From the IMG/VR virus record IMGVR_UViG_2698536505_000003: DNA of 5,062 nucleotides. One strand, given 5' to 3'. The DNA is from a virus (lineage: Duplodnaviria; Heunggongvirae; Uroviricota; Caudoviricetes). Both the position numbers and the translations under genes were made by a program. Shown here piece by piece: positions 1 to 5,062 of the stretch (position 1 is its first letter; each line of letters starts with the position of its first letter). The notes beneath the pieces were generated by a model. It had not been told where the DNA came from, did no database searches, and was given only the letters and a program-made list of their open reading frames with translations.

Positions 1-101
1 AAATATCTTTCCCCCTCCGGCGTGCTTACCACGAAGCCGCACGACTCCGCTGGCGCACATCGCCGGGCGTGCGCCAGAATCGCTGATTCTGTCTGTGTCA
101 T
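1..101 (-). CDS. K: Minor tail (tail-tip assembly) protein K, N-terminal 33 codons only; the gene continues beyond the left edge of the window
   Basis: Reverse complement from the ATG at 101..99 translates to MTQTESAILAHARRCAPAESCGFVVSTPEGERY, which I recognise as the N-terminus of lambda gpK. It lies 5 bp downstream of the L stop, in the lambda gene order H-M-L-K. Too short to appear in the ORF track. Confidence 0.8.
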   Translation of the reverse strand, partial: MTQTESAILAHARRCAPAESCGFVVSTPEGERY

Positions 102-106
102 GGGAT

Positions 107-805
107 TTACTGCGAAAGTTTGTTAATGGAAAGGAAGCCGCCAAAGTTGCCGACGTTATTGCGGAACTTACAACCGCTCAGGCATTTGCTGCATTTATCC
201 TTCGTGATATCGGACGTTGGCTGGTCATATTCATCCGCGACAGCCGGACCGCTATAACCGCACTCGTCACCGCGATAGGTCCAGGTGCAGGTGTTGGCCA
301 GCATGATACGTCCCGGAAAAACAGCGCCATCCGTTTCCGTCGGCGTGGACAGTACAAAGGAGGCACTCACCGCGCTCAGTTCGCTGCACTGCTCAATGCG
401 CCAGCGGCTGATCACCTCCTGCTCCGGATCGGCATAACTGTTTCCGTTGACGAAGTTCACCGCATCCAGAAAACGGGCGTAAACCTTACGCCGGACCACC
501 GTTCCGCCGACCAGACTCTGCATATCTTCCGCCATCCCGGTGACCATACCGTACAGGTTAGAAACCGTCAGCGTGGGGCGCGTACTGGTGCCTTTGCCAT
601 TCAGTTCAAAACCGCTCCCCTGAATGGGATACGGCTGATACTGTCGCCCCTGCCAGGTGACCGGCTCACCTTTTTCGTTCTGCTCATTACAGAAAAAATA
701 ACGTTCTCCACCGACCTCTGTCAGGTCGATTTCCCAGAGCACCACGCTGGCCGACTGCTCCGCACGGGTGCATTCATTCAGTGTTTCCTGCCGGATATCC
801 TGCAT
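107..805 (-). CDS. L: Minor tail protein L (tail-tip complex), intact, 232 aa
   Basis: ORF track 107..805 (-), 232 aa, MQDIRQETLNECTRAEQ...FLSINKLSQ, matching lambda gpL in length and sequence as I recall it. The start ATG shares one nucleotide with the M stop (TGATG on the minus strand). The C-terminal half carries the Cys cluster (C173, C182, C205, C208, C212). Confidence 0.9.
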   Translation of the reverse strand: MQDIRQETLNECTRAEQSASVVLWEIDLTEVGGERYFFCNEQNEKGEPVTWQGRQYQPYPIQGSGFELNGKGTSTRPTLTVSNLYGMVTGMAEDMQSLVGGTVVRRKVYARFLDAVNFVNGNSYADPEQEVISRWRIEQCSELSAVSASFVLSTPTETDGAVFPGRIMLANTCTWTYRGDECGYSGPAVADEYDQPTSDITKDKCSKCLSGCKFRNNVGNFGGFLSINKLSQ

Positions 806-1134
806 CAGTTCACCACCTGTTCAAACTCTGCGCTGAACTCAACACGCAGCATACTGACCCGCGACGACCATTTTGCGCAGGTCACCTTTATCTGCCGCCA
901 CTCATAAGGCGGCGTCCACAGAAAGGATTTCCAGCCCCCGTGCTCTTCCAGAAACGACTCCAGTACCGTGGCCTCCTCACGGGGGACAGAAAGCGTCACG
1001 CTGTACGTTTTCAGGTTGGCATTCAGCCCGGCAGGCGCTCGCTGAGAATAGCCATCACCAAAGCGCACCTTTCTTACAGAAGGGACCGAAGCCACATCCA
1101 TACCGGGTTTCACTTTCCAGCGGAAGGTCTTCAT
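805..1134 (-). CDS. M: Minor tail protein M, intact, 109 aa (copy proximal to the intact L)
   Basis: ORF track 805..1134 (-), MKTFRWKVKPGMDVASVPSV...EFSAEFEQVVN, matching lambda gpM in length and sequence as recalled. Its start overlaps the stop of the upstream H-derived frame (ATGA). Confidence 0.9.
   Translation of the reverse strand: MKTFRWKVKPGMDVASVPSVRKVRFGDGYSQRAPAGLNANLKTYSVTLSVPREEATVLESFLEEHGGWKSFLWTPPYEWRQIKVTCAKWSSRVSMLRVEFSAEFEQVVN
811..818 (-). promoter_or_regulatory. Shine-Dalgarno-like site for L (AGGTGGTG on the minus strand, 5 nt before the ATG)
   Basis: Reverse complement of 806..820 is ACAGGTGGTGAACTG followed by ATG at 805..803. The same motif recurs at 3314..3321 before the truncated L copy. 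Confidence 0.5.
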
Positions 1135-1808
1135 CGTCCACCTCCGGAGAACAGGCCACCATCACGCATCTGTGTCTGAATTTCATCACGGGCACCCTTG
1201 CGGGCCATGTCATACACCGCCTTCAGAGCAGCCGGACCTATCTGCCCGTTCGTGCCGTCGTTGTTAATCACCACATGGTTATTCTGCTCAAACGTCCCGG
1301 ACGCCTGCGACCGGCTGTCTGCCATGCTGCCCGGTGTACCGACATAACCGCCGGTGGCATAGCCGCGCATCAGCCGGTAAAGATTCCCCACGCCAATCCG
1401 GCTGGTTGCCTCCTTCGTGAAGACAAACTCACCACGGTGAACAATCCCCGCTGGCTCATATTTGCCGCCGGTTCCCGTAAATCCTCCGGTTGCAAAATGG
1501 AATTTCGCCGCAGCGGCCTGAATGGCTGTACCGCCTGACGCGGATGCTCCACCACTGGCAGCACCGCCAATGGCGCTGCCGATACTCCCGACAATCCCCA
1601 CCATTGCCTGCTTAAGCAGAATTTCTGTCATCATGGACAGCACGGAACGGGTGAAGCTGCGCCAGTTCTGCTCACTGCCGGTCAGCATCGCCGCCATATT
1701 TTGTGCAATACCATCAAAGGTCTGCGTGGCTGCACTTTTAACCTGCGACATACTGTCCGTGGCGCTCTCTTCCCACTCACTCCAGCCGGACTTCAGGCCT
1801 GCCATCCA
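1131..1808 (-). pseudogene. H: Orphan 3' fragment of tape-measure gene H (last 225 codons plus stop), duplicated copy without its own N-terminus
   Basis: The H frame WMAGLKSGWSEWEES...RDGGLFSGGGR* runs from the junction at 1809|1810 to the stop at 1131..1133. The ORF track extends it to 1862 only by reading out of frame across M-derived sequence (GTG start, MAADKGDLRKMVVAGQYV). Carries the variant Gly-rich patch GGAASGG. Confidence 0.75.
1141..1145 (-). promoter_or_regulatory. Shine-Dalgarno for M (GGAGG, 6-nt spacer), embedded in the 3' end of the H frame
   Basis: Reverse complement of 1131..1145 is GGAGGTGGACGATGA. Identical sites lie at 2102..2106 and 3644..3648 before the other M copies. 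Confidence 0.55.
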
Positions 1809-2095
1809 GACATACTGACCCGCGACGACCATTTTGCGCAGGTCACCTTTATCTGCCGCCACTCATAAGGCGGCGTCCACAGAAAGGATTTCCAGCCCCC
1901 GTGCTCTTCCAGAAACGACTCCAGTACCGTGGCCTCCTCACGGGGGACAGAAAGCGTCACGCTGTACGTTTTCAGGTTGGCATTCAGCCCGGCAGGCGCT
2001 CGCTGAGAATAGCCATCACCAAAGCGCACCTTTCTTACAGAAGGGACCGAAGCCACATCCATACCGGGTTTCACTTTCCAGCGGAAGGTCTTCAT
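1793..2095 (-). pseudogene. M: Duplicated M copy with replaced C-terminus: M residues 1-95 fused to SGWQA* (loses the last 14 aa of gpM)
   Basis: ORF track 1793..2095 (-), 100 aa. Identical to M through ...KWSSRVSM (codon 95 at 1811..1813), then crosses the junction at 1809|1810 into H-derived DNA out of frame. Confidence 0.8.
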
Positions 2096-2938
2096 CGTCC
2101 ACCTCCGGAGAACAGGCCACCATCACGCATCTGTGTCTGAATTTCATCACGGGCACCCTTGCGGGCCATGTCATACACCGCCTTCAGAGCAGCCGGACCT
2201 ATCTGCCCGTTCGTGCCGTCGTTGTTAATCACCACATGGTTATTCTGCTCAAACGTCCCGGACGCCTGCGACCGGCTGTCTGCCATGCTGCCCGGTGTAC
2301 CGACATAACCGCCGGTGGCATAGCCGCGCATCAGCCGGTAAAGATTCCCCACGCCAATCCGGCTGGTTGCCTCCTTCGTGAAGACAAACTCACCACGGTG
2401 AACAATCCCCGCTGGCTCATATTTGCCGCCGGTTCCCGTAAATCCTCCGGTTGCAAAATGGAATTTCGCCGCAGCGGCCTGAATGGCTGTACCGCCTGAC
2501 GCGGATGCGCCGCCACCAACAGCCCCGCCAATGGCGCTGCCGATACTCCCGACAATCCCCACCATTGCCTGCTTAAGCAGAATTTCTGTCATCATGGACA
2601 GCACGGAACGGGTGAAGCTGCGCCAGTTCTGCTCACTGCCGGTCAGCATCGCCGCCATATTTTGTGCAATACCATCAAAGGTCTGCGTGGCTGCACTTTT
2701 AACCTGCGACATACTGTCCGTGGCGCTCTCTTCCCACTCACTCCAGCCGGACTTCAGGCCTGCCATCCAGCTCCCGCGAAGCTGGTCTTCAGCCGCCCAG
2801 GTCTTTTTCTGCTCTGACATGACGTTATTCAGCGCCAGCGGATTATCGCCATACTGTTCCTTCAGGCGCTGTTCCGTGGCTTCCCGTTCTGCCTGCCGGT
2901 CAGTCAGCCCCCGGCTTTTCGCATCAATGGCGGCCCAT
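1810..2938. repeat. Inserted duplicate segment, 1129 bp, colinear with 3352..4480 (offset 1542); its first 961 bp are also copy 2 of the 961-bp unit
   Basis: Bounded by the two junctions (1809|1810 and 2936..2938). I found 3 mismatches to 3352..4480, at 2662, 2701 and 2771. Confidence 0.85.
2092..2937 (-). pseudogene. H: Orphan 3' fragment of tape-measure gene H (last 281 codons plus stop), second duplicated copy
   Basis: The H frame WAAIDAKSRGLTDRQ...GGLFSGGGR* runs from junction codon 2935..2937 to the stop at 2092..2094. The ORF track shows the part from internal Met 2820 (242 aa). No SD precedes that Met, and the upstream truncated-L frame terminates at 2904 in a different frame. Confidence 0.75.
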
Positions 2939-3308
2939 AACTGTTTCCGTTGACGAAGTTCACCGCATCCAGAAAACGGGCGTAAACCTTACGCCGGACC
3001 ACCGTTCCGCCGACCAGACTCTGCATATCTTCCGCCATCCCGGTGACCATACCGTACAGGTTAGAAACCGTCAGCGTGGGGCGCGTACTGGTGCCTTTGC
3101 CATTCAGTTCAAAACCGCTCCCCTGAATGGGATACGGCTGATACTGTCGCCCCTGCCAGGTGACCGGCTCACCTTTTTCGTTCTGCTCATTACAGAAAAA
3201 ATAACGTTCTCCACCGACCTCTGTCAGGTCGATTTCCCAGAGCACCACGCTGGCCGACTGCTCCGCACGGGTGCATTCATTCAGTGTTTCCTGCCGGATA
3301 TCCTGCAT
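2904..3308 (-). pseudogene. L: Truncated duplicate of L: residues 1-124 followed by 10 aa (GPPLMRKAGG) read out of frame from H-derived DNA
   Basis: ORF track 2904..3308 (-), 134 aa. Identical to intact L through ...NFVNGNSY, then diverges at the junction 2936..2938. Lacks the whole C-terminal Cys-rich half of gpL. Confidence 0.8.
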
Positions 3309-4480
3309 CAGTTCACCACCTGTTCAAACTCTGCGCTGAACTCAACACGCAACATACTGACCCGCGACGACCATTTTGCGCAGGTCACCTTTATCTGCCG
3401 CCACTCATAAGGCGGCGTCCACAGAAAGGATTTCCAGCCCCCGTGCTCTTCCAGAAACGACTCCAGTACCGTGGCCTCCTCACGGGGGACAGAAAGCGTC
3501 ACGCTGTACGTTTTCAGGTTGGCATTCAGCCCGGCAGGCGCTCGCTGAGAATAGCCATCACCAAAGCGCACCTTTCTTACAGAAGGGACCGAAGCCACAT
3601 CCATACCGGGTTTCACTTTCCAGCGGAAGGTCTTCATCGTCCACCTCCGGAGAACAGGCCACCATCACGCATCTGTGTCTGAATTTCATCACGGGCACCC
3701 TTGCGGGCCATGTCATACACCGCCTTCAGAGCAGCCGGACCTATCTGCCCGTTCGTGCCGTCGTTGTTAATCACCACATGGTTATTCTGCTCAAACGTCC
3801 CGGACGCCTGCGACCGGCTGTCTGCCATGCTGCCCGGTGTACCGACATAACCGCCGGTGGCATAGCCGCGCATCAGCCGGTAAAGATTCCCCACGCCAAT
3901 CCGGCTGGTTGCCTCCTTCGTGAAGACAAACTCACCACGGTGAACAATCCCCGCTGGCTCATATTTGCCGCCGGTTCCCGTAAATCCTCCGGTTGCAAAA
4001 TGGAATTTCGCCGCAGCGGCCTGAATGGCTGTACCGCCTGACGCGGATGCGCCGCCACCAACAGCCCCGCCAATGGCGCTGCCGATACTCCCGACAATCC
4101 CCACCATTGCCTGCTTAAGCAGAATTTCTGTCATCATGGACAGCACGGAACGGGTGAAGCTGCGCCAGTTCTGCTCACTGCCGGTCAGCATCGCCGCCAT
4201 ATTCTGTGCAATACCATCAAAGGTCTGCGTGGCTGCACTTTTTACCTGCGACATACTGTCCGTGGCGCTCTCTTCCCACTCACTCCAGCCGGACTTCAGG
4301 CCTGCCATCCAGTTCCCGCGAAGCTGGTCTTCAGCCGCCCAGGTCTTTTTCTGCTCTGACATGACGTTATTCAGCGCCAGCGGATTATCGCCATACTGTT
4401 CCTTCAGGCGCTGTTCCGTGGCTTCCCGTTCTGCCTGCCGGTCAGTCAGCCCCCGGCTTTTCGCATCAATGGCGGCCCAT
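2939..4480. repeat. Distal copy of a 1542-bp tandem duplication (3' half of L through the H 3' region); 2939..4312 is colinear with 436..1809 (offset 2503)
   Basis: The L, M and H translations are identical between the two blocks except at the variant positions. At least 9 mismatches found between 436..1809 and 2939..4312. Confidence 0.85.
3308..3637 (-). CDS. M: Minor tail protein M, intact, 109 aa (copy directly downstream of the full-length H)
   Basis: ORF track 3308..3637 (-), protein identical to the 805..1134 copy. One synonymous difference (3352 a vs 849 g). ATGA overlap with the H stop, and GGAGG at 3644..3648. Confidence 0.9.
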   Translation of the reverse strand: MKTFRWKVKPGMDVASVPSVRKVRFGDGYSQRAPAGLNANLKTYSVTLSVPREEATVLESFLEEHGGWKSFLWTPPYEWRQIKVTCAKWSSRVSMLRVEFSAEFEQVVN

Positions 4481-5062
4481 TTTGCCCGTTGCTGCTGTGC
4501 GAATTTATCCGCCTGCTGCGCCAGCGCGTTCAGGCGCTCCTGATACGTAACCTTGTCGCCAAGTGCAGCCAGCTGGCGTTTGTACTCCAGCGTCTCATCT
4601 TTATGCGCCAGCAGGGATTTCTCCTGTGCAGACAGCTGGCGACGTTGCGCCGCCTCCTCCAGTACCGCGAACTGACTCTCCGCCTTCCACAAATCCCGGC
4701 GCTGCTGGCTGATTTTCTCATTCGCTCCGGCATGCTTCTCCAGCGTCCGGAGTTCTGCCTGAAGCGTCAGCAGGGCAGCATGAGCACTGTCTTCCTGACG
4801 ATCGCCCGCAGACACCTTCACGCCGGACTGTTTCGGCTTTTTCAGCGTCGCTTCATAATCCTTTTTCGCCGCCGCCATCAGCGTGTTGTAATCCGCCTGC
4901 AGGATTTTCCCGTCTTTCAGTGCCTTGTTCAGTTCTTCCTGACGGGCGGTATATTTCTCCAGCGGCGTCTGCAGCCGTTCGTAAGCCTTCTGCGCCTCTT
5001 CGGTATATTTCAGCCGTGACGCTTCGGTATCGCTCTGCTGCTGCGCATTTTTGTCCTGTTGA
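3634..5062 (-). CDS. H: Tail tape-measure protein H, C-terminal 475 codons; the frame is open to the right edge, so the N-terminus lies outside the window
   Basis: ORF track 3634..4878 (414 aa from an internal Met). My hand translation of 4879..5061 continues the same frame without a stop (...RLQTPLEKYTARQEELNKALKDGKILQADYNTLMAAAKKDYEAT...). Q/A/E/K/R-rich coiled-coil-like region, then a Gly-rich segment and the C-terminus GGLFSGGGR, as in lambda gpH. Confidence 0.9.
   Translation of the reverse strand, partial: QQDKNAQQQSDTEASRLKYTEEAQKAYERLQTPLEKYTARQEELNKALKDGKILQADYNTLMAAAKKDYEATLKKPKQSGVKVSAGDRQEDSAHAALLTLQAELRTLEKHAGANEKISQQRRDLWKAESQFAVLEEAAQRRQLSAQEKSLLAHKDETLEYKRQLAALGDKVTYQERLNALAQQADKFAQQQRAKWAAIDAKSRGLTDRQAEREATEQRLKEQYGDNPLALNNVMSEQKKTWAAEDQLRGNWMAGLKSGWSEWEESATDSMSQVKSAATQTFDGIAQNMAAMLTGSEQNWRSFTRSVLSMMTEILLKQAMVGIVGSIGSAIGGAVGGGASASGGTAIQAAAAKFHFATGGFTGTGGKYEPAGIVHRGEFVFTKEATSRIGVGNLYRLMRGYATGGYVGTPGSMADSRSQASGTFEQNNHVVINNDGTNGQIGPAALKAVYDMARKGARDEIQTQMRDGGLFSGGGR

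Follow-up and report, generated by a model that had tools for sequence, protein, structure and literature searches.

The six-base patch that sets one of three copies of a phage tail-gene fragment apart from the other two is ordinary natural allelic variation, of a kind already known, and the apparent triplication in which it stands is probably an artefact of assembly or scaffolding that displays natural alleles side by side, as judged from comparison of the sequence with natural prophages. We analysed the whole stretch of 5062 nt, referred to here as the window. Two explanations of the patch had been offered in the original prediction: recombination or gene conversion with a diverged H allele, and a mixture of alleles in the assembly. 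The second appears favoured by the haplotypes of the three copies and by the position of the joints beside SNPs.

Layout of the window and extent of the patch

The window is phage-lambda H-M-L tail DNA on the minus strand, with 99.7% identity to positions 11675-14233 of J02459, and is made up of three overlapping blocks collinear with that interval, so that a stretch of ~1 kb is repeated three times in direct orientation at offsets of 961 and 2503. Block 1 (1..1809, minus strand; lambda 14233-12425) contains the L-K spacer, L (107-805), M (805-1134) and the 3' end of H (1131-1809), all on the minus strand. At a single base, an A on the plus strand at 1810 (joint b), H at lambda 12425 meets M at lambda 13384, and block 2 (1811..2936, minus strand; lambda 13384-12259) follows with M codons 1-95 and the 3' third of H. 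A second single A on the same strand, at 2937 (joint a), is where H at lambda 12259 meets L at lambda 13799; block 3 (2938..5062, minus strand; lambda 13799-11675) then contains the 5' half of L, M (3308-3637, minus strand) and more than half of H (3634-5062, minus strand), which runs from codon ~378 to its stop and leaves the window. The gene order, H followed by M (PF05939, Phage_min_tail) and L (PF05100, Phage_tail_L), is that of lambda. PF09718 (Tape_meas_lam_C) was matched with 77.6 bits for copy 3 and 76.9 bits for the chimeric ORF of copy 1, both above the Pfam gathering cut-off of 23 bits.

Microhomology is absent from joint b and possible at joint a, over 3 nt (CAT). Past the joints, the truncated L and M enter H out of frame and meet stops after 10 and 5 codons respectively, leaving a 134-amino-acid out-of-frame chimera of L at joint a (2904-3308) and a 100-amino-acid out-of-frame chimera of M at joint b (1793-2095). 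Neither chimeric protein was found on record when looked up. The joints themselves gained no support from other genomes: the 42-mers across joint a and joint b had no match in 5426 complete E. coli genomes, and a 34-mer (joint a) and a 32-mer (joint b) had none in the genome, viral or metagenome contig collections. Likewise, the 5-kb layout is present in no plasmid or complete genome, and the plasmid collection holds single-copy versions only.

Ungapped comparison of the copies at the two offsets placed the mismatches of copy 1 against both copies 2 and 3 at 1548, 1551, 1556, 1557, 1558 and 1563, exactly the six positions within 16 bp named in the original prediction, and no others lie in the interior of the patch. 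Outside the patch copies 1 and 2 are identical across their 960 common bases (850-1809 compared with 1811-2770). The expectation that the differences would be confined to the patch thus held for copy 2, but not for copy 3, which differs from copy 1 at three further sites (849/3352, 1701/4204 and 1740/4243). Copies 2 and 3 differ from each other at 2662/4204, 2701/4243 and 2771/4313. Two of these sites are synonymous SNPs, lambda 12533A and 12494T, found at 1701 and 1740 in copy 1 and at 2662 and 2701 in copy 2, and not in copy 3 (4204 and 4243). This SNP pair shows copy 2 to be a haplotype of its own and a duplicate of neither copy 1 nor copy 3.

In copy 1 (1548..1563, minus strand) codons 710-715 of gpH read GGT GCT GCC AGT GGT GGA, within GGAASGG (allele X); in copy 2 (2509..2524, minus strand) and copy 3 (4051..4066, minus strand) they read GGG GCT GTT GGT GGC GGC, within GGAVGGG (the lambda allele). 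Codon reading bore out the two residue changes and three synonymous changes previously claimed, which are V712A (2 nt) and G713S (1 nt), together with synonymous glycine changes at G710, G714 and G715. On the coding strand the substitutions are G>T, T>C, T>C, G>A, C>T and C>A. Under uniform mutation, the chance that six of six differences fall inside 16 of 960 nt is ~8e-9, and such clustering of six within 16 nt was produced in 0 of 2,000,000 simulated runs.

The earlier judgement that this is not random point mutation was right, and the patch is a second, pre-existing H allele, the 40-mer of which is present in 264 E. coli genomes. The clustering of six changes within 16 nt is also what a de novo mutation cluster, a base-calling error or targeted hypermutation by a diversity-generating retroelement would give, and to this origin we attach practically no probability. 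The exact allele in 264 complete genomes, and the exact 679-nt haplotype in five, rule out sequencing error, de novo clustered mutation and hypermutation of the retroelement type; moreover, none of the six coding-strand changes is at an adenine, and neither a reverse transcriptase ORF nor a template repeat was found within the window.

The patch allele and its haplotypes in natural prophages

The lambda allele of the patch, searched as a 40-mer, was present in 2791 of the 5426 complete E. coli genomes, and the exact 40-mer of allele X in the tape-measure genes of 264; in the phage collection the sole match to the latter was ev099, at 97.5%. The whole 679-nt H fragment of copy 1, with the patch and the two synonymous SNPs that flank it, has matches of 100% identity in prophages of five genomes. 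Thus the patch came with its haplotype, and since the exact haplotype exists elsewhere no event in situ is needed to account for it. The proposal that a patch event took place at this locus between repeat copies is not supported by this result. One of the five genomes, E. coli 14EC007 (L002, 6421-7118), carries an IS1A insertion that truncates H, and its H is a pseudogene without the N-terminus.

Eighty IMG/VR loci and four E. coli prophages, 84 natural loci in all, were aligned, and at least 10 alleles of the 18-nt patch window were seen, with the lambda allele in the majority and X in nine loci. Others carry the first one, four or five of the six changes, encode GGAAGGG, GGATGGG or GGVVGGG, or have a 12-nt in-frame deletion; the last is found in L076 (IMGVR_UViG_2778260991_000002), where four codons within gpH 709-713 are lost and IGGGASA is left. 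By its number of haplotypes the patch window lies in the top ~1% of 18-nt windows, but it is not unique, and the patch belongs among the more variable short segments of lambda-like tape-measure genes. In two IMG/VR loci (L055 and L075, ~5271-6709) an additional ~1.4 kb separates L from K, around lambda 14127, and in another locus (L034, ~2792-2868) two HSPs share 26 nt of lambda sequence near 11726-11751, which suggests a small in-gene duplication in H.

The PF09718 match covers gpH 627-701 and the patch starts eight residues beyond it, at gpH 710-715, in a glycine-rich stretch of ~690-817 that is unseen by cryo-EM and includes the unmapped cleavage site from gpH to gpH*/gpHC (PMC12617516). 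A weakly predicted membrane helix at gpH 691-712 overlaps this stretch (PMC12617516). We considered whether the patch could be tied to ManYZ dependence or to SNIPE defence and rejected the idea, as the published host-range and defence-related positions of gpH lie at ~300-400, e.g. A304V (bioRxiv 10.1101/2025.11.03.685801), not at 710-715. As natural alleles include the four-codon in-frame deletion, the sequences suggest relaxed or weak constraint at the patch rather than a known functional switch. Residues 710-715 of gpH tolerate substitutions and a four-codon deletion, in the region of the gpH to gpH* cleavage.

Allele X is found in backgrounds near lambda as well as in an H lineage that is ~96% identical (L074, L075 and L078), in which the flanks of X are also diverged. 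Two natural haplotypes permit a closer look at how it reached the former. Over 2.5 kb, haplotype Q (strain B19374) and haplotype R (strain Z1323HEC0108) differ by the patch and two SNPs only. At 102 sites Q is distinguished from L078, and R equals L078 at six consecutive ones, those of the patch, and reverts to the Q type at lambda 12587 and 12692, which bound the tract. The variant bases are therefore those of a diverged homologue, as seen in L074, L075 and L078 and in the 264 genomes, and the run of consecutive informative sites with reverting flanks is a property of natural haplotype R, not of the window in particular. On this comparison the patch in nature is a recombination tract of 16-104 nt, transferred from the ~96%-identical lineage into a lambda-near background. 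The tract event is older than the present sequence and not specific to it. The suggestion of a patch templated by a diverged H allele is thus upheld as population history, through the six of 102 sites, but not as an event at this locus. An intragenomic template, by quasi-repeat or quasi-palindrome switching, was considered and rejected: no 11-mer or longer word of X occurs elsewhere in lambda on either strand.

The lambda allele of the patch also contains, at 2512-2519 and 4054-4061 of the window (lambda 12675-12682), the octamer GTTGGTGG, a 7/8 match to the Chi octamer GCTGGTGG, and T>C at lambda 12676 alone would make it a Chi. In allele X this stretch reads GCCAGTGG, a 6/8 match to Chi.

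Each variant between the three copies is a natural allele, and together the variants define three haplotypes. The H part of copy 1 is haplotype R (patch X, 12494T and 12533A), and its M/L part is like that of haplotype P (strain 2018-01-1CC), with 13385C and 13800T. Copy 2 is haplotype Q, with the lambda patch, 12424G, 12494T and 12533A, and matches the E. coli B19374 prophage at 100% identity. The H part of copy 3 is P-like (12258T, 12424A, 12494A, 12533G and the lambda patch), but it is joined to 13385T. For block 1, as for block 3, the best natural match has ~2 mismatches by bit score and none reaches 100%. Natural phase is kept among SNPs 39-244 nt apart and is lost over a SNP-free stretch of 699 nt (12686-13385). 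The allele 12258T was present in 23 of the 5426 genomes. In E. coli ET220 (NZ_CP100981.1) lambda-like H-M-L DNA is found at ~3142604-3144728 and ~3188662-3191220, ~46 kb apart, and the rare 12258T is found at two places of this record; the pair may be a tandem double lysogen.

The 192 nt between 12494 and 12686 show three combinations, so that at least three distinct H alleles must have been present in the sample. In the complete E. coli collection the rare P allele (23 genomes) and the exact R haplotype (five genomes) were never found in one genome, so a mixed sample may be involved; nor was a genome with P, Q and R together identified there. The local blocks match different natural prophages, which is not what copies of one ancestor would show. 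The 'near-identical kilobase repeats' of the original prediction are not supported as real repeats, given three distinct haplotypes with ends and joints beside polymorphic sites. Several lambda-like H copies in one genome are common, with a median of 2 and up to 9-14 places per genome, and strain 120899 has both patch alleles, its lambda-allele copy being 79% identical overall.

Block ends, joints and the origin of the array

All six block termini adjoin sites that are polymorphic among the natural loci, at lambda 11674, 12258, 12424, 13385, 13800 and 14234, as expected if the blocks end where alleles differ. The end of the window at lambda 11675 is beside 11674 (C36/G24), and its start at lambda 14233 is beside 14234 (C20/T43). 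The sides of joint a are beside 12258 (C82/T2) and 13800 (C58/T11/A1), and those of joint b beside 12424 (A28/G56) and 13385 (C40/T42). With polymorphic positions making up 12% of sites at a minor count of at least 2, and 5% at a minor count of at least 10, the joint probability of six SNP-adjacent termini is ~3e-6 to 4e-8. Two of these sites are non-synonymous and adjoin joints: R573W in copy 3 (window 4479, lambda 12258; 23 of 5426 genomes) and N628S in copy 2 (window 2771, lambda 12424), the latter being the majority allele in the 84 loci. We also considered that the SNPs beside the breakpoints could be polishing bleed-through of junction reads, and discarded this because all of the alleles, including 12258T, occur naturally.

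Both ends of the window lie one base from common dimorphic sites, which suggests that its 5062 nt make up a complete contig or scaffold and not an excerpt. Because its ends can only be record boundaries, the internal joints, which share their property, are most simply explained by the same process. The joint bases are letters equal to the natural alleles 13385T and 13800T, not N; each could be the SNP base, a gap that was filled or an N that was recoded. Single N characters do occur at 6904 and 6968 of another locus (L067), inside J and without a coordinate jump; these probably represent consensus ambiguity at collapsed prophage SNPs.

An alternative is that the array is real, a defective lambda-like prophage with two nested partial duplications (H3'-M-L5' and H3'-M5') formed by illegitimate recombination and later diverged, and that conversion with other lambda-like prophages put GGAASGG into copy 1, as the first of the two earlier explanations had it. 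We regard this as unlikely. It can draw on the possible microhomology of 3 nt at joint a, on joint bases that both equal natural alleles, on the several lambda-like H copies that are common within one genome, on the co-residence of both patch alleles in strain 120899 and on the natural occurrence of short conversion tracts at the patch site. However, it leaves unexplained why four junction sides and both window ends are adjacent to SNPs, and at least four separate conversions would be required to turn one ancestor into three haplotypes. In addition, the junctions were found nowhere else in the collections searched, and the truncated genes, being out of frame, are without evident function.

The array could also have arisen in the cell in one step, if three co-resident prophages recombined or replication switched template among them, with switches aborting where a heteroduplex met a mismatch. 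A biological cause would thereby be given for breakpoints beside haplotype-distinguishing sites, and, if it were true, SNP-adjacent breakpoints would be a signature of heteroduplex rejection coupled to illegitimate joining. We consider this highly improbable, since the window's own ends are equally SNP-adjacent yet can only be record boundaries, and since the SNPs are on both the leaving and the landing sides, which a mismatch-aborted switch does not predict. Such an array is also without precedent in the collections searched.

The chaining of natural alleles by assembly or scaffolding, the reading we prefer, would proceed as follows. In nature a tract of 16-104 nt brought GGAASGG into a lambda-near background and gave haplotype R, which circulates unchanged in E. 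coli prophages. A sample with at least three lambda-like H alleles, from co-resident prophages or mixed strains, may then have been assembled by a program that broke its contigs where the H alleles differ. Three overlapping allele-contigs would have been chained head to tail and joined each time through one base, which would be the SNP base or would stand for a one-base gap that was filled or recoded. The locus itself would have undergone no duplication, gene conversion or mutation. Along the window strand the block ends move further downstream from one block to the next, and we infer that this is the order in which a paired-end scaffolder would place overlapping allele-contigs with negative gap estimates. 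Because each block includes sites that vary among the blocks, the blocks are not plain de Bruijn unitigs, and the assembler models considered (a simple unitig, a trimmed-edge and a reference-ordered concatenation model) each fit only part of the pattern. Among the IMG/VR draft contigs, 22 of 80 end in the H-K region, only some of them directly beside a common SNP; that the region breaks assemblies is thus supportive and not decisive.

The practical meaning is a caution. When several lambdoid phages share a cell or a sample, their near-identical tail genes can be strung into a 'segmental triplication' that is false, and allelic differences between prophages then mimic post-duplication gene conversion or clustered mutation. 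Asking whether block ends and joints adjoin population polymorphisms is a cheap diagnostic that requires the sequence only.

Comparison with known systems

With respect to lambda gpH itself, the three copies share 99.7% identity with lambda H, and the PF09718 domain is recognised; copy 1 carries V712A and G713S and three synonymous changes. The window resembles a tandem segmental duplication with later gene conversion in having overlapping, collinear, direct copies and a clustered difference. In contrast with such a duplication, its copies are unequal in extent and belong to three haplotypes, its breakpoints are sited at SNPs and its junctions are unique to the record.

Pervasive mosaicism has reportedly been described for lambdoid phages in HK97/HK022 comparisons. 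The natural patch is like it in that a tract of 16-104 nt from a ~96% lineage lies in an otherwise identical background, and the intermediate alleles would fit exchange points within the patch. It is unlike it in that the tract is very short and lies within one gene.

An independent precedent for the joints was found in another IMG/VR scaffold, L038 (IMGVR_UViG_2671180724_000001), which runs from lambda 9024 to 13589, has one N (position 4577) and then continues with an H copy from lambda 10813. This second H copy is 84% identical, and lambda position 13590 is polymorphic. As at the joints of the window, a block, here V-to-L, ends by a polymorphic site, a placeholder base follows and H restarts upstream. 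The two records differ in that L038 has an N and an 84% copy, whereas the window has an A at both joints and copies that are >99% identical.
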